The notes under the pieces were generated by a model. That model ran no database searches, had not been told where the DNA came from, and saw only the letters and a program-made list of their open reading frames with translations. The translations under genes were made by a program, and so were the position numbers. Positions 9,443 to 53,092 of a stretch of DNA of 64,000 nucleotides are shown here, piece after piece. Each line of letters starts with the position of its first letter. Position 1 is the first letter of the stretch. The DNA comes from Draconibacterium sp. (GTDB lineage: Bacteria; Bacteroidota; Bacteroidia; Bacteroidales; Prolixibacteraceae), in NCBI GenBank assembly GCA_050179035.1, contig JBFXFM010000021.1, forward strand, positions 12 to 64,011, written 5' to 3'.

Positions 9443-9448
9443 CCGGGA

Positions 9449-34676: not shown

Positions 34677-37601
34677 TTAATTTATCCTGTATGATAATGA
34701 GACGGTGTAGGTACGTCCCAGTTCGTATTGCTGGTATAAATAATCGTTGTTGTTGTATTTAACAGCTTTTTTAAATGCCGAATCGAGGATGTTGTTTACT
34801 TTAAATCCGAGGGTAAAATTGCGTAATACAGTTTTTGTAATGTTAAAATTCATCATTCCTTCGGTCGATTCATAAATGTCGGGTGTATCAATATTTGTCT
34901 CGGTCATCCGATCGCCAAATTTGTTGTAATCGAGTGTCGAGTTTAACCCTATTTCGGAATTTGAGTAGCTTAAATTTACATTTACAAGGTATGGCGACTG
35001 GCCAGGGAATGGTCTGGTTTTTTTAACCTCCCAGCCGTTGTTGGCAGCAGTTTCCTGTTCAAATTTGTTCACATCAACTTTCGAATCGATGAATGAAAAA
35101 TTGAGACCAAAACTAAAATCACGCAAACCATCAGCAATAAAATCGAGGTTTTTACGCGCTTCTAATTCAATTCCGGCAAGCTTACCTGTTTCGGAATTCT
35201 GATATTGAATTTGAGGATTTGGAACTTCGATAAGGTATTGCAGTACAATGGGGTTACTAAATTGTTTGTAATATGCGCTAACCGCAAACAACTCGCCAGG
35301 CCTTACAAACCATTCCCAACGGAGGTCGTAATTATTGATTTCGGTTCGTTTAAGGTTTGGGTTACCATTGTAAATTACACCACCAATAAAGTCGAACGAA
35401 GCAAAAGGCGCAAGTTCCCGCAGGTTGGGACGGGCAATGGTTTTACTGGCCGATGCTCTTACATTCATCGTTTCGGATAGTGCAAACACCAGGTTTACCG
35501 AGGGCAGCAGGTCTTTTTCATCAATTTCTCCTTCATAGTCGGCCAGATTCTCATCCGGAATGTATGAGAGCGCCACTACTTTTTCTCTGGGTTGCAGTTT
35601 CACTGACATGTAGGTGGTTTCGTAACGGGCTCCTACAATTGCCTTGAATTTTGGAGTGAAGTTGTAGGTTACCATTGCATACAAGGCATTAATATCGGTG
35701 GTTCCGAGATAATTGTTCTGATGTTTGGTTTGGTTGTACAAATAGTTGCCAATAATGTTTCTGTCTCTGGAATCAACTCCGATTATCCCTGTATTTGCAG
35801 GTCCGAAGTATTGATCTGAATTTCCGCCATAAGAAGTTCCTTTGTCGCGTTCGTACTGGTAAATGGTTTCAAAGAAATTACGCTCTTTGGTTGAATAAAG
35901 TCCGCCAAGCTTTATTTTGTTTGAACTGTTTTTTGATTGAAGAAATGGAATTGTGATGTCAATTTTTCCCTGTAACTGTTCGTCTTTTAATTCGCGCCAG
36001 AAATGAAAAGGCATATCGTATTCAGCCCTCGACATATAATATCCTGTGGTGTCATTATTTTCATCAAGTCGGTATGAGTTGGCGAAAAGCCGCATATCGG
36101 GTTCGTATTGTTTTGAAACGATTTTACTCCCACTGTAATCAATGCGGGTATTGTTCAGTCCCACGAAATTATGGTGTCCACTGATTTTGCCCATCTGCAT
36201 TTCGCGTTCGGTAAAACTCAGTGAGCGGGTTTGGAAGCGGGTATCGCCCGAAAGTGCAGCGGGGAAAACCCCATCCTGAAAACGTGCTGACTTCTCTGCA
36301 TCGTGGTTGTATGAATAGTTGATTTCAACTGAACCATTGTTGCTGTATTTAAAAGCCAATGTTGAAAGCCCGGTAATTTGCGGATTCTCGGTGGCTTTGG
36401 TGTCGTTCAGTATATAGTTTTCGCCCAATGCTTCAGCTCCGGCCTGAACAAGTTCCCAGTTGGCCGAAACGCCATCGCGGTAGTACGAAAAATTGCGGCG
36501 GTAATTTACACCCATAACAAAACCAATTTGTTTGTTGCGAAATACCTGCCATTGGTTACCAATTGAAAAAGCCACTTTCTGGTCGAGTGGGGCTGTCATT
36601 TCGGAGGGTGACATTTGAGAATTTACCGAACGGGCTGCATCATGGAGCAATGCTGCTTCATTTGGATATTTATCGCCCTGACGTGCTTTAATGTAGAGGT
36701 TTGTTGTTAACTCCCCGCCTCTGTCAACCAAAATACCCGGAATGTTGCGATATCCTTTGTCGTATCCAAGCCAATCGGTATTCGAACCCTGATAGGTTAA
36801 AAAGTCATTGTTAAAAGTTGATTGGTCGTTGTAGGCAGTGGAGATTTCAAAATTAAGCGTGAATTGTTCGGGGAAAGCTTTGGTTTTGATGTTCACATTT
36901 CCGCCGGTAAACGAACCAGGTAAGTCGGGAGTAAAAGTTTTTGAGGTGATAATGTTTTCGAGCAGGTTAGCAGGAATCAGGTCGAGGTCAGCAGAATTTT
37001 TATACGGATCAGTTCCGGGCAACTGCTGACCGTCCATTTGTACGCTTGAATAACGGTCGCCGAGTCCGCGAACAAATATGTCTTTGCCATTCATTACCGA
37101 AACGCCGGTAACTTTTATCATCGATTCGGCAGCATTCGAGCTTCCGAATCTTTTCATCTCAATCGAAGAAATCCCATCCTGTATTCCTTCAGCTTTTTTT
37201 TGCATGCTTAAAATGGCATTTTCGCTGTTGGTTAATTGTTTGGCCGTAATGGTAACTTCTGCAATTTCTTCAGTAGCTGGTGCCAACTGAATATTCATAA
37301 CTGTTACATCGCCGGGTTTTACTTCAATCCCTGAAATAGTTTGTGGTGCATACGAGATGTAACTAAAAACAAGAGTTACCATTCCTGAGGGCAGGTTTGG
37401 CAAGGTAAAATTACCATCGAAATCGGTAATTGTACCCGTTGTGGTTCCTTCAATAATAATGTTTACACCAATTAGGGTTTCCCCCGATTTTGCATCTGTA
37501 ATGGTGCCTCGAACAGTTCCTTTGTCTTGCGAAAATATGTTTTGTGATGACAGAAAGATGAAGAAAAGGATACTGAGAATTTTTACCAACTGTGTTTTCA
37601 T
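34677..37601 (-). CDS. TonB-dependent receptor (TBDR-1), no adjacent SusD
   Basis: 974 aa; signal, NTE domain, plug FVRGLGDRY..DLIPANLLENII..KTFTPDLPG.FTGGNVNIKT; C-terminal SLSYRIN. Confidence 0.95.
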   Translation of the reverse strand: MKTQLVKILSILFFIFLSSQNIFSQDKGTVRGTITDAKSGETLIGVNIIIEGTTTGTITDFDGNFTLPNLPSGMVTLVFSYISYAPQTISGIEVKPGDVTVMNIQLAPATEEIAEVTITAKQLTNSENAILSMQKKAEGIQDGISSIEMKRFGSSNAAESMIKVTGVSVMNGKDIFVRGLGDRYSSVQMDGQQLPGTDPYKNSADLDLIPANLLENIITSKTFTPDLPGSFTGGNVNIKTKAFPEQFTLNFEISTAYNDQSTFNNDFLTYQGSNTDWLGYDKGYRNIPGILVDRGGELTTNLYIKARQGDKYPNEAALLHDAARSVNSQMSPSEMTAPLDQKVAFSIGNQWQVFRNKQIGFVMGVNYRRNFSYYRDGVSANWELVQAGAEALGENYILNDTKATENPQITGLSTLAFKYSNNGSVEINYSYNHDAEKSARFQDGVFPAALSGDTRFQTRSLSFTEREMQMGKISGHHNFVGLNNTRIDYSGSKIVSKQYEPDMRLFANSYRLDENNDTTGYYMSRAEYDMPFHFWRELKDEQLQGKIDITIPFLQSKNSSNKIKLGGLYSTKERNFFETIYQYERDKGTSYGGNSDQYFGPANTGIIGVDSRDRNIIGNYLYNQTKHQNNYLGTTDINALYAMVTYNFTPKFKAIVGARYETTYMSVKLQPREKVVALSYIPDENLADYEGEIDEKDLLPSVNLVFALSETMNVRASASKTIARPNLRELAPFASFDFIGGVIYNGNPNLKRTEINNYDLRWEWFVRPGELFAVSAYYKQFSNPIVLQYLIEVPNPQIQYQNSETGKLAGIELEARKNLDFIADGLRDFSFGLNFSFIDSKVDVNKFEQETAANNGWEVKKTRPFPGQSPYLVNVNLSYSNSEIGLNSTLDYNKFGDRMTETNIDTPDIYESTEGMMNFNITKTVLRNFTLGFKVNNILDSAFKKAVKYNNNDYLYQQYELGRTYTVSLSYRIN

Positions 37602-37627
37602 TAATTAATTATTTGTTAGTACTTAAA

Positions 37628-37666
37628 AAAAATACCCCCGGAGTATTTTACTCCGGGGGAAATTTT
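37628..37666 (-). terminator. Intra-operon hairpin between T9SS protein 1 and TBDR-1
   Basis: CCCCCGGAGTA-TTT-TACTCCGGGGG, flanked by an A-run and a T-run. Confidence 0.75.
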
Positions 37667-37681
37667 TATTTTATGTGTGAA

Positions 37682-40651
37682 TTATCTCACAATCATTTTG
37701 TTTACTGCTTTATTTTCACCGGCGTTGAGCTGGTAGAGATAAATACCTCTTTGCAAACCTGAAACATTAACCTTGTAAGTTCCTTTCTGCTGAGTTTCGC
37801 TTATCACCGATTTTACAATTTTACCTGTAACATCATAAACCATCAGGCTTACATTGGCCATTTCAGGAATGGTATATTCAATGGTTGTGGTTCCGTCAAA
37901 AGGATTCGGATAGTTTTGTTTCAATTCAAAACTGTTAATCCCCATTTCGTTAACCGAAACGTACAATTCGCCAAAATAGCCCATATTATCCAGAGCAGTC
38001 CACATTTTAGCCCAGTTTTCATGGCCAAACGCTCCTTTGTAAGCTGTTTCCTCTAATCCTGTGGTTACAAAAGCACCGGTAATCGGAGCTACATTTTCCC
38101 AGGCTGAACTTTGCGGATTCGGACGTGGGTCGAGTTTTCCATCGGCTTCGCGCGAAATTCCCGATATCATTGGGTTTGCTATGGTATTTGCGTTAGCAGT
38201 TAAGTGGTTAACAAGAAAAGCGCCTGTTACATCTTCGGCATCGCTTGTAACCTGAATCATTTTACCGGCAGCAAGTTCGTCGCCAGCACCAAAACCAAAC
38301 CAGATGTTATTTTTGAAAACGAGGTCGCCGTTTTCCATGTGTTTGCGTGAGTCGGTTCCTTTGTCGGCAGCGCGGTCTTCCACTTCAATAGCGCTGAAAG
38401 CAAATTCAGTAAAAATTGAGTTGGCATACATACCACCTGCTCCATCGCGCAACATTAAAGCCACGTCGCCTACATTTGAAGCGGTTCCCGGGCCAATGTA
38501 AGTAGCATTGAAAATTGTAGGTTTTGCAAATCTTGGGTTATCATCGGGGTGAGCGCCATCGTGTTCGCCACCTGAGCCTGCATCGTCAGTACCCTGAATT
38601 GCAAACCAGAACTGGCCACCGCCTCTCCATCCGTCGTCATAATCAAAAGCATCGTCGCCACAGAAAGCAGCAATGAGGTATTTTGTCATTACAGTACCAC
38701 CCCAGAATTCGAAACCATCATCAGAGTTGGCAAACACTTCCACGTTTTCGATTACGGTCTGGCTGCCAACACCGGCAACCGACAAACCGTTGATTTCGTT
38801 ACCTGGCGAGAGTTCAGCACCACCGTGGCGTATTGAAACATATTTGAAAACTCCTGTATTGTGAGTATCGTCGTCTCCGCCAAATTTGGCACGTTCTTCA
38901 CCAGCAGGGATACCTTCAATTGCAGATTCGGCAGCGGTGAACCCGATAACGCCTTTACCCAGAAGGATAACACCACCCCAAAGACCTCGGTCTTCGTGGG
39001 TTAAATCAGCAGGGTCGGTTAAATCATCATCTTCGGCAGTGAAGATAATCGGGAGTTCAGCAGTACCTTCGGCCATAATTTTGGCATCGCGTGTAATAAT
39101 CAGTGCCGAAGCATTGTCACCGGTTGTAGGTGTTGCTTTGGCTTTGATAACCGTTCCGGCATCAATTGTTAAAGTACCCGATTCGAGGAAAACAAAACCA
39201 TCGAGCAGGTAAGTTTTGTCTGCTGTCCAGTGTGCATCACCGGTTAAGGTAGCGTCGGTAACCAATACTTCAGTTCCGCCGGCAGAGAAATCAAGATCCC
39301 CGAAATAACCCATTTTATCAAGTGCTGTCCAACCAAGCGCCCAGTTGGTTGAGCCAAAGGCTCCCCTGTAACTTGTGCTCATTATATTTTCATTGTCTGA
39401 AGAAGCAGAGCCGCTCCATGCCGGACTGCCGGCTGCAAGTCTTGGGTCGAGCTGACCATTAGCTTCACGGCTGATTCCGCGGAATTTTGGGTTTGCTATG
39501 GTATTTGCGTTAGCAGTTAAGTGGTTAACAAGAAAAGCGCCTGTTACATCTTCGGCATCGCTTGTAACCTGAATCATTTTACCGGCAGCAAGTTCGTCGC
39601 CAGCACCAAAACCAAACCAGATGTTATTTTTGAAAACGAGGTCGCCGTTTTCCATGTGTTTGCGTGAGTCGGTTCCTTTGTCGGCAGCGCGGTCTTCCAC
39701 TTCAATAGCGCTGAAAGCAAATTCAGTAAAAATTGAGTTGGCATACATACCACCTGCTCCATCGCGCAACATTAAAGCCACGTCGCCTACATTTGAAGCG
39801 GTTCCCGGGCCAATGTAAGTAGCATTGAAAATTGTAGGTTTTGCAAATCTTGGGTTATCATCGGGGTGAGCGCCATCGTGTTCGCCACCTGAGCCTGCAT
39901 CGTCAGTACCCTGAATTGCAAACCAGAACTGGCCACCGCCTCTCCATCCGTCGTCATAATCAAAAGCATCGTCGCCACAGAAAGCAGCAATGAGGTATTT
40001 TGTCATTACAGTACCACCCCAGAATTCGAAACCATCATCAGAGTTGGCAAACACTTCCACGTTTTCGATTACGGTCTGGCTGCCAACACCGGCAACCGAC
40101 AAACCGTTGATTTCGTTACCTGGCGAGAGTTCAGCACCACCGTGGCGTATTGAAACATATTTGAAAACTCCTGTATTGTGAGTATCGTCGTCTCCGCCAA
40201 ATTTGGCACGTTCTTCACCAGCAGGGATACCTTCAATTGCAGATTCGGCAGCGGTGAACCCGATAACGCCTTTACCCAGAAGGATAACACCACCCCAAAG
40301 ACCTCGGTCTTCGTGGGTTAAATCAGCAGGGTCGGTTAAATCATCATCTTCGGCAGTGAAGATAATCGGGAGTTCAGCAGTACCTTCGGCCATAATTTTG
40401 GCATCGCGTGTAATAATCAGTGCCGAAGCATTGTCACCGGTTGTAGGTGTTGCTTTGGCTTTGATAACCGTTCCGGCATCAATTGTTAAAGTACCCGATT
40501 CGAGGAAAACAAAACCATCGAGCAGGTAAGTTTTGTCTGCTGTCCAGTGTGCATCACCGGTTAAGGTGGCATCGGTAACAGTTATTATGGTTTGTGCATT
40601 CATTGCAAAAGCCATAATAAGAAAGGAAATCATTAAAGTAAATTTTCTCAT
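37682..40651 (-). CDS. T9SS-secreted protein 1: two tandem beta-helix-like domains + type-A CTD
   Basis: 989 aa; signal peptide; duplicated ~439-aa unit (TLTIDAGT, NEINGLSVAGVGSQT, DDGFEFWGG, DDAFDYDDG); CTD QNYPNPF..YDVTGK..GIYLYQL..KMIVR. Confidence 0.92.
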   Translation of the reverse strand: MRKFTLMISFLIMAFAMNAQTIITVTDATLTGDAHWTADKTYLLDGFVFLESGTLTIDAGTVIKAKATPTTGDNASALIITRDAKIMAEGTAELPIIFTAEDDDLTDPADLTHEDRGLWGGVILLGKGVIGFTAAESAIEGIPAGEERAKFGGDDDTHNTGVFKYVSIRHGGAELSPGNEINGLSVAGVGSQTVIENVEVFANSDDGFEFWGGTVMTKYLIAAFCGDDAFDYDDGWRGGGQFWFAIQGTDDAGSGGEHDGAHPDDNPRFAKPTIFNATYIGPGTASNVGDVALMLRDGAGGMYANSIFTEFAFSAIEVEDRAADKGTDSRKHMENGDLVFKNNIWFGFGAGDELAAGKMIQVTSDAEDVTGAFLVNHLTANANTIANPKFRGISREANGQLDPRLAAGSPAWSGSASSDNENIMSTSYRGAFGSTNWALGWTALDKMGYFGDLDFSAGGTEVLVTDATLTGDAHWTADKTYLLDGFVFLESGTLTIDAGTVIKAKATPTTGDNASALIITRDAKIMAEGTAELPIIFTAEDDDLTDPADLTHEDRGLWGGVILLGKGVIGFTAAESAIEGIPAGEERAKFGGDDDTHNTGVFKYVSIRHGGAELSPGNEINGLSVAGVGSQTVIENVEVFANSDDGFEFWGGTVMTKYLIAAFCGDDAFDYDDGWRGGGQFWFAIQGTDDAGSGGEHDGAHPDDNPRFAKPTIFNATYIGPGTASNVGDVALMLRDGAGGMYANSIFTEFAFSAIEVEDRAADKGTDSRKHMENGDLVFKNNIWFGFGAGDELAAGKMIQVTSDAEDVTGAFLVNHLTANANTIANPMISGISREADGKLDPRPNPQSSAWENVAPITGAFVTTGLEETAYKGAFGHENWAKMWTALDNMGYFGELYVSVNEMGINSFELKQNYPNPFDGTTTIEYTIPEMANVSLMVYDVTGKIVKSVISETQQKGTYKVNVSGLQRGIYLYQLNAGENKAVNKMIVR
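38170..39250. repeat. Copy B of the 1081-bp intragenic direct repeat
   Basis: Offset 1317 bp from copy A; six pairs of shadow ORFs in different frames translate identically; boundaries read by eye. Confidence 0.92.
39487..40567. repeat. Copy A of the 1081-bp intragenic direct repeat
   Basis: Matches 38170-39250; first mismatches at 39486/38169 and 40568/39251. Confidence 0.92.
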
Positions 40652-40692
40652 AATGTATTTATTTTCTGTGATTTAAAATAAAATAACGGGGG

Positions 40693-40750
40693 CGAAAAAA
40701 AGGTATTAATATTACAAGGGGGTTAATATTAATTTAAGGACTTGTTACAT
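40693..40750 (-). promoter_or_regulatory. Candidate Pho box (4 repeats, 11-bp period) for the T9SS-1/TBDR-1 operon
   Basis: Plus strand from 40711: ATTACAAGGGG GTTAATATTAA TTTAAGGACTT GTTACAT (TTA at 40712/23/34/45); degenerate -7 element TTTTTTCG. Confidence 0.65.
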
Positions 40751-43353: not shown

Positions 43354-43490
43354 TTTAAAAGGCTTATCAGAAATTTAACTTTAATTGAACCTAAATTTTA
43401 CATTTCGTGCAATTTGGCTGGTGTTGTTTATTCGCTGTCCTAAAAAACCTGTTTTATTAAACATTTTACCCGCCAGATATTACATAAATG

Positions 43491-43555
43491 TATAAGTAGA
43501 GCAAAGTTGTTACAATCCGGTCACTAAATTATTAAATATTATTAATTTATATTTG
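43491..43555. promoter_or_regulatory. Divergent phoBR/porin promoter region with a candidate Pho box
   Basis: GTTACAATCCG GTCACTAAATT ATTAAAT from 43509 (11-bp period); perfect TATATTTG on the plus strand at 43548-43555; weak TACTTATA on the minus strand at 43491-43498. Confidence 0.55.
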
Positions 43556-43580
43556 CGCCGACATTTTTTACAACATAATA

Positions 43581-44576
43581 ATGAAGCGATATCTACTGTT
43601 CCTGTTATTGACTTTATTCCCCGCATTTCTTTATTCCCAACCCGCTGAATTTGTTCCTTCCGGCAAACCATTTGCTACCATTTTCGCCAACTTCCACCAG
43701 GGAATTACAGGTTCGGCAAAAGAGGAAGCTGCTTTCGAACTTGTGCGCGGGTACATTGGATACGAGTACAATTTCAGTCCTGAATTTTACGCAAAAATCA
43801 ATGTGGATGTTGGAAGCCCAAACGACCTTTCGCCCTACTCGAAAGCGCGTCGTTATGCATATTTTAAAAATGCCTATTTGCGCTACATGAAAAAAGGGCT
43901 TACCATCGATTTCGGGTTAATTGATATGCGCCAGTTTAAGTTGCAGGAAGCAGTATGGGAACGCCGCTACCTTATGAAATCACTTGCCGATGAATACCAG
44001 CTTGGGCAGTCAGCCGACCTTGGAATGAACGTAAACTACAAATTTACAAACTGGATTGATGCCGATTTTTCTGTTTCCAACGGCGAAGGGTACAGCAGCA
44101 TTCAAATGGACGATGTGTTTAAATATGGAATCGGCTCAACAATTACATTACCTGAAGATTTTACCTCGCGAATCTTTTATGAATTCACCAAAAAGGAAAT
44201 CACCGAAACCACGCTAACTCTTTTTACTTCGTACGACTTTAAAAAGATTTGGAATATCGCGGGTGAAGCGGTGATGAGGCAAAACGACAAGTGGAAAGAG
44301 AACCAAAATATTTTTGGCTGGTCGGTATATGCAAAATACAACCTTACAAAAAAATACCAGCTTTTTGCACGTTACGACCGCGTAACATCTAATATTCTTA
44401 AAGACGAAATCAACCCGTGGAATCTGGCGAATGACGGAACTGCGCTTGTTGCCGGAATCCAGTTTCAGCCCATCAGCAAAATTAAAATGGCACTCAATTA
44501 CCACGACTGGTATCCGCTGGCTGCCAACATGGAAGGCGGTGGTTTTATTTATTTCGATGTTGAAGTAAAACTGTAA
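43581..44576 (+). CDS. Outer-membrane porin (possibly phosphate-selective OprO/P-like)
   Basis: 331 aa; signal peptide; amphipathic beta-strands; AYFKNAYL; C-terminal YFDVEVKL. Substrate inferred from context only. Confidence 0.7.
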   Translation: MKRYLLFLLLTLFPAFLYSQPAEFVPSGKPFATIFANFHQGITGSAKEEAAFELVRGYIGYEYNFSPEFYAKINVDVGSPNDLSPYSKARRYAYFKNAYLRYMKKGLTIDFGLIDMRQFKLQEAVWERRYLMKSLADEYQLGQSADLGMNVNYKFTNWIDADFSVSNGEGYSSIQMDDVFKYGIGSTITLPEDFTSRIFYEFTKKEITETTLTLFTSYDFKKIWNIAGEAVMRQNDKWKENQNIFGWSVYAKYNLTKKYQLFARYDRVTSNILKDEINPWNLANDGTALVAGIQFQPISKIKMALNYHDWYPLAANMEGGGFIYFDVEVKL

Positions 44577-44586
44577 ACAGCCAGCC

Positions 44587-45897
44587 ATGAAAAGAAATTT
44601 TATTCTGATATCTGCATTTATTTTAATGTTAGTTAGCTGCCGAAAAAGTGATTATGAGCTCGAAACCAGCGGCAATAATATTGTTGACAATGGTGCCGGA
44701 ACCGGAACTGTTACCTGGACAAAAGACAAAGAATATGTAATTGAAGGTTTTGTTTTTGTAAACGACGGGCAAACACTTACCATTGAACCTGGAACCGTGG
44801 TGCGCTTTGCAGCCGGTGAAGGTGAAAATGCCAGTGCGTTGATTGTTTCGCGTGGAGGTAAAATTATGGCCGAAGGAACTGCCGATGAACCCATTATTTT
44901 TACAGCAGAATCAGACGACCTGATTCTTTCGGTGGAAAAAGAAAAAAGGGGTTTATGGGGCGGATTGATGATTCTTGGAAATGCCCCGATTAACGTAAAA
45001 GGCGGCGAATCGACAATCGAAGGTATTCCTTTCTCAGAGCCGCGCGGTGTGTTTGGCGGGCCCGACGAAAACGACGATTCGGGTGTTCTGAAATATGTTT
45101 CAATTCGCCATGGAGGAACAAACATTGGCGATGGCAACGAAATTAACGGACTTACACTGGGCGGCGTAGGCAGCAAAACTATCGTCGATTATGTTGAAAT
45201 TATTTCGAATGAAGACGATGGAGTTGAAATTTTTGGCGGCACTGTAAACCTGAAACACATGGCGGTTTCGGGTTGTGGCGACGATGCTTTCGACTACGAT
45301 TTGGGCTGGAATGGAAAAGGGCAGTTCTGGCTCGCTGTTCAGAATGATAATCTTGGCGACCAGATTATTGAGGCTGGTGGCGGAACCGACCCTGTAATTG
45401 GTACGCCAAATTCACTTCCCAATATATTCAATGTTACCCTTGTTGGCAACGGAAATAATGGAGATGGCGGATGTGTGAAATTTTTTAATTACGCCGGAGG
45501 AAATATTGCCAACTCGGTTATTATCAACAATAATCACGGTATTTTGCTCGAAGTTACCGATGCCCAGCACGACAGTTACGCACAGTGGCTGCAAGGGAAA
45601 CTTGAGGTGAAGAACAATGTTTTTTACGATGTGGCATCTTCAACACCGGCAACAGTTTTTTCACTCACCGGTTTTTATTCGACCGACCAGCAAACTTTAT
45701 GGTCCAACAGTTTTGTCACTTCTAAAAACGAATTCACCAATCCGAACATGGATTGGAAAAACGGTGATTATTTGCCAAATCCGAAATTGCAGGGGAACAT
45801 GGCAGAATACCCCGATTCATGGTTTCAGGTTGTAAATTTTAAGGGCGCGTTTGGCGAAAGTAATTGGATTGAAGGCTGGACTTTGCTTGCAGAATAA
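44587..45897 (+). CDS. Lipoprotein carrying one copy of the same beta-helix-like domain as T9SS protein 1
   Basis: Lipobox LVSC followed by RKSDYELE; TLTIEPGT, NEINGLTLGGVGSKT, DDGVEIFGG, DDAFDYDLG. Confidence 0.9.
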   Translation: MKRNFILISAFILMLVSCRKSDYELETSGNNIVDNGAGTGTVTWTKDKEYVIEGFVFVNDGQTLTIEPGTVVRFAAGEGENASALIVSRGGKIMAEGTADEPIIFTAESDDLILSVEKEKRGLWGGLMILGNAPINVKGGESTIEGIPFSEPRGVFGGPDENDDSGVLKYVSIRHGGTNIGDGNEINGLTLGGVGSKTIVDYVEIISNEDDGVEIFGGTVNLKHMAVSGCGDDAFDYDLGWNGKGQFWLAVQNDNLGDQIIEAGGGTDPVIGTPNSLPNIFNVTLVGNGNNGDGGCVKFFNYAGGNIANSVIINNNHGILLEVTDAQHDSYAQWLQGKLEVKNNVFYDVASSTPATVFSLTGFYSTDQQTLWSNSFVTSKNEFTNPNMDWKNGDYLPNPKLQGNMAEYPDSWFQVVNFKGAFGESNWIEGWTLLAE

Positions 45898-46352: not shown

Positions 46353-46410
46353 CAAAAGCAGCGAAAATCAGATTAATGTTTGGTAAACAATGGGTTAAAA
46401 AAATGTTACG
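46353..46410 (-). promoter_or_regulatory. Candidate Pho box for the 45898-46308 gene
   Basis: ATTAATGTTTG GTAAACAATGG GTTAAAAAAAT GTTACG from 46372; TGCTTTTG -7 element on the minus strand at 46353-46360. Confidence 0.55.
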
Positions 46411-46513
46411 TAAGCAAAGGGAAGGAATGTTGTAATTGTTGTCATTGTTGTTGTAGGATTACTGAAATTCAGGAGCTATGGGTTACCATTCCTTCTTCAG
46501 AACACAGCTCTTT

Positions 46514-46553: not shown

Positions 46554-46719
46554 ATCTGGCGCACCTCTCATAATCTGAAAGTAGTTTGAAATACAGGTGC
46601 TGACAACCGGTTTTTTCAGATTTACAAGTTGAGGCAGGATGTTCAAAAATCTAAGGCAAAACTTCAGCCTAAATCAGGTGAATGATTGTAAACCGTTTTT
46701 TGTATTTTTAAGAAAAAAA

Positions 46720-47256
46720 ATGATGAGACTTTTATCCTTGCTTTTCATTATAATTCTGGCCACCGGTTGCCAAACCGAAAACAGAAAGGCTGAACCCTCG
46801 CAAAAACGAAGCCACCCGAGCCATCGGTACAATTATGTAACTGTCGATACAACAACATTGAATTATTTCGAAACCGACTACCTGCCGGTTTACTCCGATA
46901 TTTATTATGAGAATGGCACACAGCGGTTCCCGATTACAGCCACTGTGAGTTTGCGCAACACTTCGCTTACCGATTCGGCGTATGTACTTTCGGCCCGATA
47001 TTACGACTCGTATGGTAAAATGCTTCACGTTTATATCGATTCCACCTTGTTGCTGTCGCCACTTGAGTCGGTTGAACTGGTAGTTGAAGAAGGTGAAAAA
47101 GCAGGTGGAGCCGGCGCTAATTTTATCATCGAATGGGCGGCTGCCAAATACACCAACCAGATGCTGATTCAATCGGTAATGATTAGCACGTACGGGCAGC
47201 AGGGCGTTTCATTTCTTTCGGAAGCGAAGGTTATTCAACGGAAAAACCGGGAATGA
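46720..47256 (+). CDS. DUF3124 lipoprotein
   Basis: Lipobox ATGC; YLPVYSDIY, TVSLRNT, RYYDSYG, GGAGANFIIEW, IQSVMI. Confidence 0.85.
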   Translation: MMRLLSLLFIIILATGCQTENRKAEPSQKRSHPSHRYNYVTVDTTTLNYFETDYLPVYSDIYYENGTQRFPITATVSLRNTSLTDSAYVLSARYYDSYGKMLHVYIDSTLLLSPLESVELVVEEGEKAGGAGANFIIEWAAAKYTNQMLIQSVMISTYGQQGVSFLSEAKVIQRKNRE

Positions 47257-47259
47257 TTT

Positions 47260-48393
47260 TTATTGTTCCAGATTCAACACTTTTGCAATTTCTGCCCACG
47301 AAATGTATTTGTAGTTCTGGCTTTTCTTTTTCCTTCCGTCGTAATTAAAACCATCCTGCACCACCAGCATTCCCTGCGGAAATCCGGGCAAAGCAACCGT
47401 GGTAATATCCAATCCGTCGGTTTCTTCAACACCATCAACAACTCCATCAGTAATCCTGAAACTGCCCAGATATTTGTTTTCTCCCTGCCGTTCGAAAACT
47501 GCGTACGAAAAGTTTCCCTGCGATGAGGCTACCAGGTAGCCATTTAGACTGTCGGTTGCATAAATCGCCAGTCCTTCAATATCGTATTTTATATTCAGAT
47601 TTTCTTCGGAGCTTTTTTGTATGAATTTCCCCTCGGTTGAACCCTCGGGTTCGGCGTCAAATTTCCAAATTCCGGCCTGTTCTTCACCGATGTAAAGGAT
47701 TCCGGTTTCGTCGTCGGCTACCATTCCTTCGGTTTGGGTGCCAATTTTCAGTGAGCGAACCAGTTTTGCATCAACTTTATTTTCGGCAGCAAAAAGTTCG
47801 TATTGTTCCACTTCGCCCGATTTGCCGTTTACAAAAACATAAAACAGCCCGGTTTTTTTACTTCGGTACATGCACAAACCATACACTTCGTCGCTCATGG
47901 CCGATTTGATAATACGGTTGTGTACCGAGTCGAGCCCACCATTTTCAACTATTCTGAAAAGTGAAACCGATTGCATGGTACGGTTGCTGGCAGCGAGAAT
48001 ATCGATGGTGTCGCCATTCAGCGGAAAACCGTAACGCAGGTCGCAATTGTTCATATCGCCGGTGGCGTAATAGTTGAGTTGTTTTCCGGTTAAATCGTAA
48101 GTTGCGAGTCCGCCTTTTTTATCGGTCCCGATAATTACTGATTTTTCAGGGTTTTGAGGATGAATCCAAATTGCCGGGTCATCAGCCGAATCGTCGTTTT
48201 TTCCGCGCGGTGTTGGTTCGGTTTCAATACTTGCGGCAACCAGATTCTTAATGTGTTCGCCTGCTTTGCGCGAGCCTTCGCCAGGGCGGTTACACGAATT
48301 AAATGTTATCAAAACAAACAGCCCGATAAACAGGCTGGTTGTTCCAGGGAATATTTTCATTTCTTTCATCGGTATTTTTGAATCAATTTTCAT
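47260..48393 (-). CDS. Beta-propeller phytase (3-phytase), lipoprotein
   Basis: DSADDPAIWIHP, IIGTDKKGGL, MNNCDLR, YGLCMY, TQTEGMVAD, YIGEE..GIWK, DIEGL, ETDGLD, VVQDG; lipobox FNSC; the true start may lie ~33 bp inside the ORF. Confidence 0.93.
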   Translation of the reverse strand: MKIDSKIPMKEMKIFPGTTSLFIGLFVLITFNSCNRPGEGSRKAGEHIKNLVAASIETEPTPRGKNDDSADDPAIWIHPQNPEKSVIIGTDKKGGLATYDLTGKQLNYYATGDMNNCDLRYGFPLNGDTIDILAASNRTMQSVSLFRIVENGGLDSVHNRIIKSAMSDEVYGLCMYRSKKTGLFYVFVNGKSGEVEQYELFAAENKVDAKLVRSLKIGTQTEGMVADDETGILYIGEEQAGIWKFDAEPEGSTEGKFIQKSSEENLNIKYDIEGLAIYATDSLNGYLVASSQGNFSYAVFERQGENKYLGSFRITDGVVDGVEETDGLDITTVALPGFPQGMLVVQDGFNYDGRKKKSQNYKYISWAEIAKVLNLEQ

Positions 48394-48400
48394 AAGTATT

Positions 48401-51274
48401 TTAAAAATTGAGTTTTAAACCAACCCGTGCCCACCAGGAGTAATATTCCTGTTGCAAAAGTTTATCGGGCGTACCCAGGTAGTATTTTAACGGGGCGTTT
48501 GTGAGATTTATTACATCGACAAAAACATTCAGATTTTTTGTGATTGAATAATTCGTTGTAAAATCGAAATGCCAGGCTTTATCGTAGTATTCATCCAAAT
48601 CGCTGTCGGCACCCAGTTCGTGTAAAAAGGCATCGTGATAATTGGCCGTAATTTTTGCATAAAACTTTTTGGTTTCGTAGAAAAGTGCAAGATTGGCTGT
48701 GTGTTTTGCCTGCCCCGGAAGCATTATTTTTTCCTTTTCGCCGTTTTCGTCAAAAAATACGCTCAAATCATCTTCACCAAAAATCACAACAGCGTCGCTG
48801 TAATTGGCCGGGTAGCGCTGGCTGATGTAAGCTTCTGAGAATGTGTAAGTATAGTTGGTATAAATTCCAAAGTTTTTCAGAAAGTTATCGAAAAAGAAAA
48901 GTTTCGACTGGTATTGCAACTCGGCGCCATATACAAAAGCATCGCGTCCGTTGGCTGCAATGGTAATTTCGTCGAGCGAGGTTCCGGTTGAAGCGTCGCT
49001 TTGGTGTGCAAACCGTTTAAAATAAAAGATAAAGTCGTCAATCTGTTTATAGAAAAAGCCCCCTGAAAGTAAGCCTTGTTCGCCAAAATAGGTTTCGCCA
49101 AGCAAATCGAAATTGATGGCTGTCGGGTATTTCAGGTCGGGGTTTCCAAAGGTGTATTGGTCGTTGTCTTTCTCTTCCTTGTAAGGCAACACATCTTTAA
49201 AATTGGGGCGCGAGTAGGTTCGTGTAACAGCAGCCCTGAAGTTTGTATTCTTATTCAAACTATATCTTACCTGCAATTGCGGTAGCAGAAACTGGTGCGA
49301 ACGCTGGTCGTTCAATGTGTCGAGCCGTACAAATTTCTTCCCGTCGGCAATTACATTGTGTCCGGTGTAGTTGATGTTGGTTTTTTCGAACCTCAACCCA
49401 CCCAACAACATCAGGTTGTTGAAGTTGTGTTTTATCATTCCGTAAGCCGCATAAATATCTTCGTTTGCGGTATAGTCAGCACCGTAAGATTCCTGTCGGG
49501 TTCTGGTGGGATCATACACAAACTGGTGCCTGTTGTATTCGTAAAAATCGCGCACTTTTTCGGGCGAAGGCATAGCTTCAATTACATAACCATGATTCAG
49601 CAGGTTGGGGTCGGTAAAACCATCACTCACACCGTAAAGCGTAAGCGGTTCAGCCACGCCGGGGTACGGATTTACTAATTTTGAATAAGGATATCCACCG
49701 TAAACCTGCGAGTTGTCGTCGCGGCTTTTATCTTTCATCCGTACTTTTCCCCCAAATTTGAAACTTCCGTTGCGGTAAGGTATTTCAAGATTCAGTTTTG
49801 CTGTTACATTGATGTCTTTGATGATGTTGTTTTCGAGCTGTAGTCCGTCAAATTCATATTTTGCATAATCAGTAACCAACTGCTCATCGCCTTCGGTAGG
49901 GTAACTAATGGTGGGCCAGTTGGGGTCGGTTAAATCAAATTTCATCATCACGCCGTGCCCCGGACTGTCGAACCCGGTTTCGAGACGGGTGGGGTCTTTT
50001 TCCGATGAATAGGCATAAGCAATTTCGTAATCGATTTTTGTTTTTCCCAGGTTGTGCATACCGCCGAGGTTCAGGGTGTAAATCTCCTGAACCTGCCGTG
50101 TATCGCGAATATCGTGCGCCACCGAGCAGTCGCGGTAAAGTGTTTCACTGATGGCATCGGAGGTTTCGTAAGTTATTCTGCGCCGCAGTTCCTGGTCGGT
50201 AAAACTGTTAAACATTCCGCGAAGGTAAACCGATGAACCTTCGTTAAAGATGTAGTCCATGGTTGTGCTCACGCCAATACGGGTGCGCGTAATATCGTAA
50301 TGTCGAAGTTCCATTTTCTTGTACTGCACCTTGTAATTGTCGATGCTGTCGCCCTGACTTCCCCAAAACGGACCTTTTATATAATTGAATTCCATGTTAT
50401 CGGAGCCCAGGTTGTTTTTGTAATAACTGCTGTTGAGGTAAAATCCGAATTTGCCGTAACGTGCGCCGTATGAAAACTGCACCTGGTAGTTTTCGGTTTG
50501 TCTCAGGTTGTTGTACCCCCCTGAAATTGCAGCCGAAATATCTGGTTTCTGGTCGAGCGCTTTTTTGGTAACAATGTTCACATTTCCGCCAATTCCATCA
50601 GCGTCCATATCGGGGGTTAGCACTTTGGTAATTTCAACAAATTCAATCTGGTCAGCCGAAATTACATCGAGACCAACATAACGCACATCGCCTTCGGGCG
50701 AAGGAATTTGTTCGCCGTTGATGTTAAAGTTGGTAAGCTCCGGCGGGGTTCCGCGGAGTTGTACAAAACGACCTTCTCCCTGGTCGCGCTGCAAGGTAAT
50801 TCCGGGGATTCGCTGAATAACTTCAGCCGCATTCATGTCAGGGAATTTCTCGATTTGTTCAGAAGAAACTATGTTTTTGATGTTTTCAGCTAATTTCTGG
50901 TCGAGCAGGGCTTTTTGCTGACCGCGTGCCAGCGCAGTTATATTAATTTGACCGATTTCCTGTGTTGACGGGTCGAGTGCGATTTTCAGGTTTTTAAGCA
51001 GAGGTTCTGAAAAACTTACCGGAACCACTTTCGTTTGATAACCCATAAACGAAACCAGCAGCGTTACCTGTCTGGATTTTATTCCTGTTAATTCGAAAAA
51101 ACCGTTGTTGTCGGTGATGGTTCCGTGGGTTGTATTTTCAACAACAATCCCTGCACCGGGCAGGGCTTCGTTGGTGGTGGCATCGGTAATAATTCCCGAA
51201 ACCGAATAATTCTGGGCAGCTAATTGTGTGGTTAGAATAAATGAGAAAAGGAAGACAAGGATTTTAGGCTTCAT
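48401..51274 (-). CDS. TonB-dependent receptor (TBDR-2, phytase-associated type), no adjacent SusD
   Basis: 957 aa; NTE; plug PDMNAAEVIQRIPGI.LQRDQGEGRFVQLRG..DADGIGGNVN; C-terminal GLKLNF. Confidence 0.95.
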   Translation of the reverse strand: MKPKILVFLFSFILTTQLAAQNYSVSGIITDATTNEALPGAGIVVENTTHGTITDNNGFFELTGIKSRQVTLLVSFMGYQTKVVPVSFSEPLLKNLKIALDPSTQEIGQINITALARGQQKALLDQKLAENIKNIVSSEQIEKFPDMNAAEVIQRIPGITLQRDQGEGRFVQLRGTPPELTNFNINGEQIPSPEGDVRYVGLDVISADQIEFVEITKVLTPDMDADGIGGNVNIVTKKALDQKPDISAAISGGYNNLRQTENYQVQFSYGARYGKFGFYLNSSYYKNNLGSDNMEFNYIKGPFWGSQGDSIDNYKVQYKKMELRHYDITRTRIGVSTTMDYIFNEGSSVYLRGMFNSFTDQELRRRITYETSDAISETLYRDCSVAHDIRDTRQVQEIYTLNLGGMHNLGKTKIDYEIAYAYSSEKDPTRLETGFDSPGHGVMMKFDLTDPNWPTISYPTEGDEQLVTDYAKYEFDGLQLENNIIKDINVTAKLNLEIPYRNGSFKFGGKVRMKDKSRDDNSQVYGGYPYSKLVNPYPGVAEPLTLYGVSDGFTDPNLLNHGYVIEAMPSPEKVRDFYEYNRHQFVYDPTRTRQESYGADYTANEDIYAAYGMIKHNFNNLMLLGGLRFEKTNINYTGHNVIADGKKFVRLDTLNDQRSHQFLLPQLQVRYSLNKNTNFRAAVTRTYSRPNFKDVLPYKEEKDNDQYTFGNPDLKYPTAINFDLLGETYFGEQGLLSGGFFYKQIDDFIFYFKRFAHQSDASTGTSLDEITIAANGRDAFVYGAELQYQSKLFFFDNFLKNFGIYTNYTYTFSEAYISQRYPANYSDAVVIFGEDDLSVFFDENGEKEKIMLPGQAKHTANLALFYETKKFYAKITANYHDAFLHELGADSDLDEYYDKAWHFDFTTNYSITKNLNVFVDVINLTNAPLKYYLGTPDKLLQQEYYSWWARVGLKLNF

Positions 51275-51318
51275 CGTTGATTTTTTATTTTCAGGAACGA
51301 TTGCTTATCGTAAAAATT

Positions 51319-51352
51319 CACCCTGAACAAAGCTGGAAGCCCGTTCAGGGTG
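51319..51352 (-). terminator. Intra-operon hairpin between T9SS protein 2 and TBDR-2
   Basis: CACCCTGAAC..GTTCAGGGTG. Confidence 0.65.
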
Positions 51353-51374
51353 ATATATTAAATCAATCAGGTTA

Positions 51375-53009
51375 CTAATTAATAATGATTTTCCGGGTTA
51401 CTGAACCGGTTTCGCCAGTAAAACGAATAAAGAAAATGCCTTTGTTTATTGCACTTACATCGATGGTTTGCCTTGTCGATTCAACCAACCCGCGCTGCAC
51501 GGTTTTGCCTGTAATATCGTGAATGCTGAATGTTTCAAAACGGTTTTCTGACAAATCAAAATTCAGTTTTCCGTTGTTCACAGGATTTGGATAAACGTTA
51601 ACCACGGGTTCGGCGCCGATTTGTTCTTTAACCGCATTTGTGCCCGATTTGTAATAAACCACTAATTGCGGAACACGCTCGGGGTGGTTCTGTCCGTCGC
51701 CGCCATCTTCCGGGTCGGCAATATTTTCGAACGATTCCAACTCGCGTGCATTTTCAGCTTCGCTCACGCCCTGGTTTTCACCTTCCATGATAAAAGCTAT
51801 GGCATTTCCCGAATTCCAGCCCTGTAATCCGATGATTTCCTGAACCACCGATTTGATATCCGCAGTGCGGTGTTTTGTGTAAAGTCCCCATTCTTCGGCA
51901 ACTTCCCAGCGTACCGAGGCTGAAGTTTTTGGTCTGTCGGTAATTAAAGCTTCCATGCTAAATGTTTCGGGGTTAGCATTTTTTTCGCCACGGATGGTGA
52001 TGTTGGCTTCATCAGTTGCCGATTTTCCTTCGTGCGAGTGGATTACAATATATGCCGAATCGATGGTAGCATCAGCAGGAATGGTGATTCCGCGGAAACG
52101 TAACCCAAGGTTTACAATGTTGATTGTACTGGCATCCACATATTCATACCCAATATCAAGGTCGTCATCATACAAATCGTCCATTTCATCGTTCTCCTGT
52201 TCGGCATCGTCTGATGATACATTGATAACCACACCTTCTTCCATGATGGTGTCGGTTTTCTGAATATAAACTTCCAGTTTTTCGTTGTCGGTTGTGCCTG
52301 CCGGTTCAGAATAATACACCACCAATTGCGGAACGCGCTCGGGGTGGTTCTGTCCGTCGCCTCCATCTTCGGGGTCGGCAATATTTTCGAACGATTCAAG
52401 TTCGCGTGCATTTTCGGCTTCGCTCACACCCTGGTTTTCGCCTTCAAGAATAAATGAGATGGCATTTCCTGAATTCCATCCGCTCAAACCAATTATTTCC
52501 TGAACCACCGATTTGATATCAGGTGTGCGGTGTTTTGTGTAAAGTCCCCATTCTTCGGCAATTTCCCAGCGTACCGAGGCTGAAGTTTTTGGCCGGTCGG
52601 TAATAAGCGCTTCCATAGTAAATGTTTCGGGGTTGGCATTTTTTTCGCCTTTTATTGTGATGTTGGCCACATCGGTGGCCGATTTTCCTTCGTGAGAGTG
52701 GATTACAATAAATGCCGAATCGATTGTTGCACCTGCCGGAATTGTAATTCCAAGGAAACGCATCCCAAGGTTTACAATGTTTATTTCGCTTGCATCAACA
52801 TATTCATAACCAATGTCGAGGTCGTCGTCAAACAAGTCGTCCATTGCATCGTTTTCCTGCTCTGCATCGTCAGACGAAACATTGATTACCACACCTTCTT
52901 CCATAATGGTGTCGGTTTTCTGAATGTAAACTTCCAGTTTCTTGTTTTGCGCAAAAACTGAAGTGGTAAAAAACAAAAGGAATAAGGAATAAAGTAGAGT
53001 TGATTTCAT
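51375..53009 (-). CDS. T9SS-secreted protein 2: two tandem acidic ~220-aa domains + type-A CTD
   Basis: 544 aa; signal peptide; units offset by 660 bp (SSDDAEQEND..DDDLDIG..LG.RF.GITIP..ATIDSA..WNSGNAI); CTD VYPNPV..DITGK..KIIIN. Confidence 0.9.
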   Translation of the reverse strand: MKSTLLYSLFLLFFTTSVFAQNKKLEVYIQKTDTIMEEGVVINVSSDDAEQENDAMDDLFDDDLDIGYEYVDASEINIVNLGMRFLGITIPAGATIDSAFIVIHSHEGKSATDVANITIKGEKNANPETFTMEALITDRPKTSASVRWEIAEEWGLYTKHRTPDIKSVVQEIIGLSGWNSGNAISFILEGENQGVSEAENARELESFENIADPEDGGDGQNHPERVPQLVVYYSEPAGTTDNEKLEVYIQKTDTIMEEGVVINVSSDDAEQENDEMDDLYDDDLDIGYEYVDASTINIVNLGLRFRGITIPADATIDSAYIVIHSHEGKSATDEANITIRGEKNANPETFSMEALITDRPKTSASVRWEVAEEWGLYTKHRTADIKSVVQEIIGLQGWNSGNAIAFIMEGENQGVSEAENARELESFENIADPEDGGDGQNHPERVPQLVVYYKSGTNAVKEQIGAEPVVNVYPNPVNNGKLNFDLSENRFETFSIHDITGKTVQRGLVESTRQTIDVSAINKGIFFIRFTGETGSVTRKIIIN

Positions 53010-53034
53010 AGTTTTTGATTTTGCAATTTTGATG

Positions 53035-53092
53035 CAAGATTAACAAGTGGCATTTAAACGCAGGTTACAATCAGATTAAGTGAATGTTACAG
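53035..53092 (-). promoter_or_regulatory. Candidate Pho box (4 repeats, 11-bp period) for the T9SS-2/TBDR-2/phytase operon
   Basis: TTTAAACGCAG GTTACAATCAG ATTAAGTGAAT GTTACAG from 53053; TAATCTTG -7 element on the minus strand at 53035-53042. Confidence 0.7.

Follow-up and report, generated by a model that had tools for sequence, protein, structure and literature searches.

Two parallel modules pairing T9SS-sorted tandem-domain proteins with SusD-less TonB-dependent receptors in a phosphorus-scavenging island of a Draconibacterium-like bacterium

We describe here two gene modules in a 64-kb stretch of DNA from Draconibacterium sp. (GenBank assembly GCA_050179035.1, contig JBFXFM010000021.1, positions 12 to 64,011), which we call the window. 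From 31.6 to 55.4 kb the window carries a PhoBR-flanked phosphorus-scavenging island of a Draconibacterium-like member of the Prolixibacteraceae, and both modules sit within this island, on the minus strand. Each has, in order, a Pho-box-like array, a cargo protein of the type IX secretion system (T9SS) with a duplicated domain, a terminator-like hairpin, and a non-SusC TonB-dependent receptor (TBDR) that lacks a box array of its own. Our reading, to which we give a probability of roughly 0.55, is that the island is controlled by PhoBR and that the modules are two operons, built to one plan, for the capture and import of an organophosphorus substrate, and in module 2 also for its hydrolysis. 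Below, the two T9SS proteins are called cargo 1 and cargo 2, or the accessory proteins. The original prediction, made from the sequence alone, had recognized two parallel modules of one architecture, and all the elements that it listed were recovered at or near the places it gave. Missing from it were the PhoR and PhoB genes directly upstream of module 1 and the phytase gene in which module 2 ends. Gene content was taken from a listing of open reading frames (ORFs) and from Pfam and NCBIfam scans; coordinates are collected in Table 1.

Each cargo protein begins with a Sec signal peptide, as judged by eye (MRKFTLMISFLIMAFAMNAQ in cargo 1, MKSTLLYSLFLLFFTTSVFAQ in cargo 2), and ends in a T9SS type-A C-terminal domain (CTD) that scores above the cutoffs of 27 bits for PF18962 and 23 bits for TIGR04183 (52.1 and 48.4 bits in cargo 1, 54.2 and 51.3 bits in cargo 2). 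Cargo 1 has no lipobox cysteine, and carries the T9SS CTD in its stead. Between signal peptide and CTD lie two tandem copies of a domain, offset by 1317 nt in cargo 1 and by 660 nt in cargo 2, in agreement with the internal duplications predicted for both. It had also been claimed that the two kinds of domain are unrelated to each other, and the folds bear this out. The cargo 1 unit, of about 439 amino acids (aa), is of the PF28492 type; its AlphaFold model is a confident right-handed beta-helix (predicted local distance difference test, pLDDT, 96.6), and its Foldseek matches are all beta-helix proteins, with weak similarity to lyases of polysaccharide lyase family 6 (PL6), polygalacturonases and tailspikes. 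The cargo 2 domain, of about 215 aa, is modelled as a confident beta-sandwich (pLDDT 94.3) that resembles carbohydrate-binding modules (CBMs). It has no Pfam, NCBIfam or PDB sequence match; PDB sequence searches with either domain gave nothing useful. The best PDB folds for cargo 2 are a chondroitin-sulfate-binding CBM (8wab; E 2e-7, TM score 0.55-0.70) and an alginate-binding CBM (7vbo; E 1e-5), both of them binding modules for polyanionic glycans, and a CBM-like fold of this kind would be consistent with a binding role. The invariant residues of cargo 2 lie mainly in acidic clusters (DD.E, DDD.D, DPEDGGDG) that resemble Ca2+ sites, and the domains are probably Ca2+-binding. The beta-helix family likewise carries invariant Asp/Glu clusters. 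Acidity is pronounced in both cargo proteins, at a pI of about 4.2, and each cargo 2 domain has a net charge of -28.

The receptors are not of the SusC type. TBDR1 consists of CarbopepD_reg_2, Plug and a TonB_dep_Rec barrel, and is only a distant relative of the TIGR01782 (TonB-Xanth-Caul) receptors, with 253.9 bits against a cutoff of 310; TBDR2, which has an N-terminal CarbopepD_reg domain, is a TIGR01782 receptor (471.3 bits). Against the SusC/RagA model TIGR04056, with a cutoff of 368 bits, TBDR1 scores 81.6 bits (residues 29-135) and TBDR2 66 bits (residues 24-429), mainly from N-terminal sequence. No match to a SusD family came from those neighbouring ORFs, from 31.6 to 55.4 kb, that were compared with Pfam, so that the description of the receptors as SusD-less is upheld. 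The phytase that follows TBDR2 matches PF02333 with 358.3 bits over profile positions 25-358 of 375 and begins only 7 nt past the receptor gene; in homologous loci the spacer between TBDR and phytase is also short (median 19.5 nt). The N-terminus of the phytase is lipoprotein-like (..LITFNSC) and lacks the acidic surface-export motif, and the enzyme probably faces the periplasm. The tight coupling of TBDR2 to a phytase with such a signal suggests that module 2 is directed at phytate.

The proposed T9SS-TBDR pairing holds up in a genome-neighbourhood survey, where the linkage is strongly conserved. For cargo 2 we fetched 84 loci. In the 80 from GTDB species representatives, the cargo-2 homologue is followed on its own strand by a TBDR2-like gene wherever the contig leaves room. 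Over the whole set of 84 a TBDR gene follows on the same strand in 82; of the two exceptions, one locus ends at a contig edge and in the other the TBDR match, 1.7 kb downstream, is only partial. A match to phytase occurs in 67 of these loci; it comes behind the TBDR or immediately ahead of the cargo gene, nearly always on the same strand. The loci without one have the cargo 2-TBDR pair alone or the pair and then a metallophosphoesterase. Three distant homologues on long contigs all show the order cargo 2-like gene, TBDR, phytase on one strand. In two loci (L002, 4894-7757; L077, 4688-7656) the operon, with or without the phytase, has as neighbours a TPR-containing histidine kinase and a response regulator of the LuxR/GerE type rather than PhoBR, which may point to another regulator in these lineages, perhaps one specific for the substrate.

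The cargo 2 domain itself is widespread. A HMMER search over 1.84 billion representative proteins found 10,809 at E<=1e-3. Many of these, running into thousands, are giant T9SS proteins of up to 5,880 aa with 3-8 copies of the core (residues ~20-180), and those sampled also contain a T9SS CTD and domains of the PKD, cadherin-like, LTD or CotH type. The fold is thus a common surface-protein module without a name in the Pfam copy searched, and the subfamily found in the window is the one that spans the full 220 residues. Our literature searches turned up no description of the cargo 2 family, nor of a T9SS partner for a TBDR-phytase pair.

The cargo 1 family is better known. The unit has more than 7,800 homologues with the newer Pfam family PF28492 (Beta_helix_4), which was preassigned to all 120 homologues listed; nearly all of these 120 are about 550 aa long, which is one unit plus a CTD, including the closest relative listed (89% identity). 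A survey of 79 metagenome loci reveals three forms: proteins with a signal peptide and a T9SS CTD, lipoproteins beside a TBDR and often with PhoB nearby, and lipoproteins with a CRKSDY motif beside a homologue of a 331-aa protein. The window holds an example of the last form in a paralogue of cargo 1 whose lipobox reads ..LVSCRKSDY (Table 1). Flanks of at least 1.5 kb on each side are available for 44 loci; in 34 of these a TBDR1-like gene directly adjoins the beta-helix gene on the same strand (18 downstream, 16 upstream), in 5 more it lies within 4 kb, and in 4 the 331-aa partner is found instead.

Relatives of this kind have been studied. In Flavobacterium johnsoniae the pectin-lyase-like lipoprotein FII (Fjoh_0546) adjoins the TonB-dependent transporter (TBDT) Fjoh_0545 and phoBR (Lidbury et al. 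2021, PMC8115612). Phosphate (Pi) depletion induces Fjoh_0545 about 2^8-fold and Fjoh_0546 about 2^10-fold, and FII is a major exoprotein (PMC8115612). In reads from Pi-depleted cells the TBDT stands at about 8,000 (5,700-11,600) and FII at about 119,000 (84,000-162,000), a ratio of about 14. BT4056 of Bacteroides thetaiotaomicron, a relative of Caulobacter ElpS that shares 40% identity with Fjoh_0546, has been proposed as an alternative lid of the TBDT BT4055; the proximity of the two genes is conserved in 621 genera, and AlphaFold-Multimer contacts of BT4056 on BT4055 have been published (Price, Deutschbauer & Arkin 2023, 10.1101/2023.03.17.533168). ElpS has a LAGC lipobox (Le Blastier et al. 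2010, PMC2996285). Cargo 1 probably belongs to this ElpS/FII/BT4056 group, to judge from its fold, its Pfam family, the reported InterPro assignment as pectin lyase, the phoBR/TBDT context and its lipoprotein relatives. The original prediction had suggested that secreted or surface-tethered binding proteins may replace SusD as partners in substrate capture. The conserved TBDR linkage and the CBM-like fold of cargo 2 favour that idea, but for the family to which cargo 1 very probably belongs it has been published before, and module 1 taken alone adds little to that work.

What evidence is there for control by PhoB? A scan of both strands of the 64 kb for four CTGTAAY units at 11-bp spacing, the unit being derived from the window itself, gave 7 matches in 4 clusters where 0.5 would be expected, and all 4 clusters lie upstream of minus-strand genes of the island; the array of cargo 1 is among the matches. 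The strict pattern transfers poorly to other genomes, with 1 of 76 loci scoring 20 or more, and a position weight matrix (PWM) was used instead. For this matrix, 44 nt long, the sole training material was the 250-nt upstream regions of cargo-2 homologues from 76 other genomes; the units that emerged are of TTAAC type, in 11-bp phase, and lie a median of 104 nt ahead of the ATG. Applied to the window it scores at least 12 bits at 7 of 127,914 positions, and five of the six top clusters are found upstream of genes in the island. Each cargo gene is preceded by a site, at 12.4 bits for cargo 1, where the array ends about 55 nt ahead of the ATG, and at 16.7 bits for cargo 2. The predicted four-repeat box of each module is thus recovered by a matrix built from other genomes. 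Upstream of the remaining module genes there is no Pho-box-like site within 300 nt, the PWM maxima being -1.5 bits for TBDR1, -2.9 for TBDR2 and -5.4 for the phytase. The repeat unit matches the core 'TTTAACA' found by DAP-seq (sequencing of DNA after its affinity purification) for PhoP of Riemerella anatipestifer, also a member of the Bacteroidota (PMC9603813). The Bacteroidota -7 motif TAnnTTTG has no exact match near the boxes. To judge from their sequence and position, the boxes are very probably PhoB operators, and the TBDRs very probably depend on the cargo promoters for phosphate-responsive expression.

The strong intergenic hairpins predicted at 37628-37666 and 51319-51352 are present, with stems at 37635-37659 and 51318-51353. 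Their free energies (dG) are -24.1 and -29.3 kcal/mol, and z against shuffles is -5.3 and -4.7. Hairpin 1 begins 22 nt past the cargo 1 stop and ends 26 nt before the TBDR1 ATG, and in both modules only some 26-45 nt separate hairpin and TBDR ATG. The two hairpins top the list of terminator-like structures for 33.9-53.7 kb, having the longest and most GC-rich stems, and they are not copies of an element repeated within the window. In the accessory-TBDR spacers of homologous loci, of at least 40 nt, the best local stem-loop was compared with shuffles of its own spacer. From cargo 2 to TBDR, 70 of 80 spacers reach that length (median spacer 95 nt); dG is -17 kcal/mol or lower in 54 and z is -2 or lower in 55, with a median z of -5.3. 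The order beta-helix to TBDR gives 24 spacers, of which 20 pass the same energy limit and 23 the same z (median -5.95). When the TBDR comes first and the beta-helix second, the figures are 7 and 4 of 20 spacers, and the median z is -0.36. Stem sequences are unrelated between loci, so that it is structure that is conserved and not sequence. Conservation of a strong stem-loop at the junction is therefore specific to loci with the accessory gene in first place, and this dependence on gene order, together with the lack of boxes before the TBDRs, fits an attenuator or mRNA stabiliser by which the accessory protein would be over-produced. The excess of FII over TBDT reads in F. johnsoniae may be an independent hint of such over-production, though gene order is reversed there. 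The sole RNA run found, an unrelated ice metatranscriptome, held 5% of the sampled words and was unusable.

The tandem duplications are of two kinds. In cargo 1 the copies are 100% identical in DNA across 1081 nt, and an assembly artefact was the obvious suspicion. It is ruled out by read depth in three runs (X1, X5 and X7), in which the 1081-bp unitig has about twice the flank depth and a 296-bp junction unitig about the single depth, and by a clean single-copy allele in a fourth: in a wastewater metagenome (X6), the contig of a near-identical strain omits exactly 38170-39486, or 1317 nt, and so carries a single-domain allele. The cargo 1 duplication is genuine, very recent and strain-polymorphic. 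In the family at large, 10 of the 79 loci have two or three tandem units, 73-99% identical within a protein and 35-52% identical to the window; 7 of these 10 have a T9SS CTD, and no lipoprotein form in the survey is duplicated. In cargo 2 the copies share about 85% of their DNA and 91% of their aa sequence, the differences falling mostly in third codon positions, as expected under purifying selection on both copies. Among the 81 closest non-redundant loci, from several orders, 69 have two units in one ORF and one has three, and most of the apparent single-unit loci are cut by contig ends. Single-unit proteins are common among 50%-identity cluster representatives as well, and the closest relative of cargo 2 (80% identity) is single-domain, so both architectures exist. 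Units within one protein are on average 80% identical (67-99%), and between proteins about 65%, whether in the same or the other position. The nearest neighbour of a unit is its own partner in 66 cases, a same-position unit elsewhere in 68 and an other-position unit elsewhere in 2, a pattern which implies that the duplication is passed down within groups of related species and, in the longer run, homogenised or renewed. A judgement from protein lengths that both duplications are lineage-specific was overturned for cargo 2 by the genome survey, and stands for cargo 1 only.

Do these duplications serve a purpose? Unequal recombination in genes for secreted proteins, which are prone to repeats, might have produced them as neutral and short-lived features and not as adaptations for bivalency. 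For cargo 1 such an origin sits well with the identity of the copies, with the single-copy allele in another metagenome and with the single-domain state of the closest relatives among the matches listed; the single-domain closest relative of cargo 2 could be cited to the same effect. Set against it are the two-domain cargo 2 proteins in several orders, the purifying selection on both cargo 2 copies, the nearest-neighbour counts (68 against 2), which speak for inheritance rather than transience, and the independent two- to three-fold duplications among the beta-helix loci. As a general account of both families we think neutrality doubtful, and independent tandem duplication in the two is suggestive of selection for multivalency. 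The bivalency originally ascribed to both cargo proteins is thus typical of cargo 2, while in cargo 1 it is sporadic.

How might such a module work? Under phosphate limitation phosphorylated PhoB would bind the (G/T)TAAC repeats, phased at 11 bp, and transcription would start at the accessory gene. Most transcripts would end, or be stabilised, at the stem-loop directly after that gene, and a minority would read through into the boxless TBDR and, in module 2, onward into the tightly coupled phytase gene. The outcome would be an accessory protein in large excess over its transporter. Exported through the T9SS and then tethered to the surface or released, the accessory proteins would act upstream of the TBDR by capturing or preparing the organophosphorus substrate. 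Cargo 1 would be a T9SS-sorted version of the phosphate-starvation-induced beta-helix exoproteins of the ElpS/FII/BT4056 type. Cargo 2 would capture phytate, possibly as Ca-phytate, and hand it over to TBDR2, and the phytase would hydrolyse it in the periplasm. PhoB control, read-through, surface location, the ligand and hand-over to the TBDR are all steps that we infer. A high ratio of accessory protein to transporter would be easier to reconcile with a surface "net" or a shuttle of the hemophore kind than with a SusD-like lid at 1:1. A further and tentative proposal is that cargo 2 represents a new class of T9SS-dependent partner for TonB transporters, a 'phytate-capture' protein whose Ca2+-binding, CBM-like tandem domains evolve in concert, bind metal-phytate at the surface of the cell and deliver it to a dedicated TBDR for hydrolysis in the periplasm, and that selection for multivalency, plus a conserved intercistronic attenuator by which more binder than channel is made, is a general design rule shared by convergence with the T9SS beta-helix/TBDR modules.

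Several observations weigh against the proposed capture-and-import operons. The F. johnsoniae TBDT-phytase pair Fjoh_1368/Fjoh_1367 is Pi-induced, but the neighbouring Fjoh_1369 is not, and that pair is probably without a cargo-2-like partner (the sequence of Fjoh_1369 was not compared); the accessory protein would then be lineage-restricted and presumably non-essential for this type of transporter. Both cargo proteins are strongly acidic, so that binding of phytate, a polyanion, would need cation bridging. The invariant acidic clusters of the beta-helix family could be catalytic rather than a binding site. The family identity of cargo 1 is a strong inference from fold, Pfam family, context and lipoprotein relatives rather than from direct alignment. 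The roughly 14:1 ratio of accessory to TBDT transcripts in F. johnsoniae would argue against a 1:1 lid complex. Hairpin 1 has canonical intrinsic-terminator anatomy, as of an efficient terminator, and some homologous loci have spacers of 6-36 nt and no hairpin. The Caulobacter TBDR gene cc0171, beside elpS, is reported from reverse-transcription PCR (RT-PCR) to be constitutive and independently regulated, elpS being Pi-induced (PMC2996285).

Two other explanations can be built on these points. One is that the accessory proteins are exoenzymes or free scavengers of the Pho regulon and not transporter partners, adjacency reflecting a common pathway: the beta-helix would be a lyase, a hydrolase or a helper of phosphoesterases that releases P-containing fragments, and cargo 2 a general adhesin or CBM-type module, comparable to SusG-type enzymes or to helpers of secreted phosphatases. 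The weak fold similarity of cargo 1 to lyases, polygalacturonases and tailspikes and the Asp/Glu clusters lend this some support, as do the release of ElpS into the medium, the rise in extracellular alkaline phosphatase activity on ElpS overproduction, and the 14-fold transcript excess of FII; so does the occurrence of the cargo 2 core in multiple copies in giant T9SS proteins. We nevertheless consider it rather unlikely. A TBDR as neighbour on the same strand is an almost constant feature even of distant lineages, more so than membership of one pathway would lead one to expect; contacts have been modelled between BT4056 and BT4055; the top structural matches of cargo 2 are non-catalytic binding modules; and Pfam and NCBIfam found no catalytic family in either cargo protein.

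The other explanation is that the hairpins are ordinary, efficient terminators that set no ratio, and that the TBDRs form separate units with constitutive or differently regulated promoters. Hairpin 1, with its 11-bp GC-rich stem and U8 tract, is a textbook intrinsic terminator, and the reported behaviour of cc0171 and elpS would be just what is expected. But the few nucleotides between hairpin and ATG, the strong Pi induction of homologous F. johnsoniae TBDTs, and the contrast in PWM maxima between the TBDR and phytase genes and the cargo genes all tell against separate units, and the enrichment of hairpins only in the accessory-to-TBDR order fits attenuation better than generic termination. 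This second explanation seems to us quite improbable, and we return to the reading of PhoBR-controlled operons for capture and import.

The rest of the island accords with a role in phosphorus scavenging. Its Pho-related members by Pfam and NCBIfam are the PhoB and PhoR equivalogs, each above cutoff (NF053854, 317 bits; NF053855, 673 bits), a PHO4 transporter with PhoU_div, the phytase, and a PlcP-like metallophosphoesterase with a glycosyltransferase. The last pair resembles the lipid-remodelling pair of phosphate-starved F. johnsoniae (Fjoh_0541, PlcP). The closest relatives of both cargo proteins are in metagenome-assembled genomes (MAGs) of Prolixibacteraceae/Draconibacterium, and window DNA recurs in biofilm, landfill and wastewater metagenomes.

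Table 1. Features of the phosphorus island and its two modules (positions in the window)
Feature	Position	Strand	Details
Periodic CGTAAC/TGTAAC site	55486-55447	-	upstream of PlcP-like/glycosyltransferase pair
PlcP-like metallophosphoesterase + glycosyltransferase	55431->53581	-	Pfam/NCBIfam
Small ORF p126	53189-53569	-	directly upstream of cargo 2
Array upstream of cargo 2	53049..53092	-	CTGTAAC / ACTTAAT / TTGTAAC / CGTTTAAA, 11-bp phase; 16.7 bits
Cargo 2	53009->51375	-	544 aa
Cargo 2 domains	A 52949-52302, B 52286-51642	-	
Cargo 2 T9SS type-A CTD	51596-51381	-	
Hairpin 2	51318..51353	-	14-pair stem then AUUUUUA, weaker tract; between cargo 2 stop and TBDR2 ATG
TBDR2	51274->48401	-	
Beta-propeller phytase	48393->47260	-	PF02333
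DUF3124 lipoprotein gene	46639-47256	+	between phytase and p145, opposite strand
Top-scoring site in window	46368..46411	-	upstream of p145; 24.3 bits
Small ORF p145	46335->45898	-	
Lipoprotein-type PF28492 beta-helix	44587-45897	+	436 aa; 41% identical to cargo 1 domain
331-aa signal-peptide protein	43581-44576	+	weak DUF2490 match, possibly small beta-barrel
Site before 331-aa/beta-helix pair	43373-43416	+	13.6 bits
phoB	43353->42667	-	Bacteroidota-type equivalog model, above cutoff
phoR	42651->40891	-	Bacteroidota-type equivalog model, above cutoff
Array upstream of cargo 1	40707..40750	-	ATGTAAC / CCTTAAA / TATTAAC / CTTGTAAT, 11-bp phase; 12.4 bits
Cargo 1	40651->37682	-	989 aa
Cargo 1 beta-helix units	~40588-39272 and ~39271-37955	-	
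Exact 1081-nt repeat, copy A	39487..40567	-	identical to 38170-39250
Exact 1081-nt repeat, copy B	38170..39250	-	
Cargo 1 T9SS type-A CTD	37912-37688	-	
Hairpin 1	37627..37659	-	11-bp stem CCCCCGGAGTA/TACTCCGGGGG (8 GC), 3-nt loop, U8
TBDR1	37601->34677	-	
MORN-repeat protein	34080-34574	-	between TBDR1 and CarbopepD_reg-only gene
Cleanest array in window	34037..34080	-	CTGTAAT three times, 11-bp spacing; upstream of CarbopepD_reg-only ORF; 13.2 bits
Small secreted CarbopepD_reg-only protein	34020->33643	-	domain as in TBDR N-terminal extensions
PhoU_div + PHO4 transporter	33407->31652	-	

A third pair of accessory and outer-membrane genes lies at 43373-45897 on the plus strand; it has a Pho-box-like site, and the 331-aa protein takes the place of the TBDR beside the lipoprotein beta-helix. 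The same gene pair is found in locus L001 and in six metagenome loci (L123, L130, L133, L135, L140, L147, L150 region). The small ORFs p126 and p145 are paralogous (local alignment score 222), with neither a signal peptide nor a Pfam match, and share the pattern MSTK..LIYKSN..F..LPV.F.GMPDG. Locus L001 has two small unannotated ORFs at the position equivalent to p126.

No pool of organic phosphorus in soils and sediments is larger than phytate, and to our knowledge its route across the outer membrane of the Bacteroidota has not been established. A conserved surface accessory dedicated to a TBDR-phytase pair would, if real, give a concrete and testable pathway for phytate uptake, and a T9SS-sorted class would then be added to the few non-SusD partners of transporters that are known. 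The design rules drawn from the comparisons, namely the hairpin with accessory-first order, recurrent duplication in both families and boxless TBDRs, can be tested genetically in cultivable relatives. As far as the literature was searched, the T9SS-sorted variants are new, as are the cargo 2 family with its near-obligate link to a phytase TBDR, a tandem duplication that is conserved or recurrent, and an intercistronic hairpin that depends on gene order.

How do the modules compare with known systems? With SusC/SusD (PusCD) they share a TBDR with an N-terminal CarbopepD_reg domain beside a presumed substrate-capturing surface protein, and a degradative enzyme in the locus, in the manner of a polysaccharide utilization locus (PUL). 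The cargo proteins, however, have neither the SusD fold nor a lipobox, the TBDRs fall far under the TIGR04056 cutoff, the partner is T9SS-sorted, and the accessory protein is probably in large excess rather than 1:1. Closer to module 1 are BT4055/BT4056, Fjoh_0545/Fjoh_0546 and CC0171/ElpS, in which a beta-helix protein stands beside a non-SusC TBDT in a phosphate-starvation context, with phoBR nearby and an exported, abundant partner already proposed as a non-SusD partner or lid. Cargo 1 differs from BT4056, FII and ElpS in having a Sec signal peptide and a T9SS type-A CTD in place of a lipoprotein anchor, together with a tandem duplication, and whereas the TBDT comes first in F. johnsoniae, cargo 1 precedes its TBDR with a terminator-like hairpin between them.

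Module 2 recalls the TBDT-phytase pairs. Beta-propeller phytase genes are said, by Lim and colleagues in 2007, to adjoin TonB-dependent receptor genes in many Gram-negative bacteria. As in Fjoh_1368/Fjoh_1367, a TIGR01782-type TBDR is followed by a PF02333 phytase in the setting of a Pi-starvation regulon; what sets module 2 apart is the T9SS tandem CBM-like protein that precedes the TBDR, here and in some 80 other genomes. The hemophore-type systems HasA-HasR and HmuY-HmuR supply a TBDR from an abundant binding protein that is secreted or sits on the surface, and an abundant binder with a TBDR is what we propose for the two modules. The presumed ligand here is an organophosphate and not haem, and the protein families are unrelated. 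Finally, intercistronic hairpins set subunit ratios in the Rhodobacter puf operon and in malEFG of E. coli, where a stem-loop follows the upstream gene and the upstream mRNA is more abundant than the downstream; the stem-loops predicted in the two modules occupy the equivalent place.

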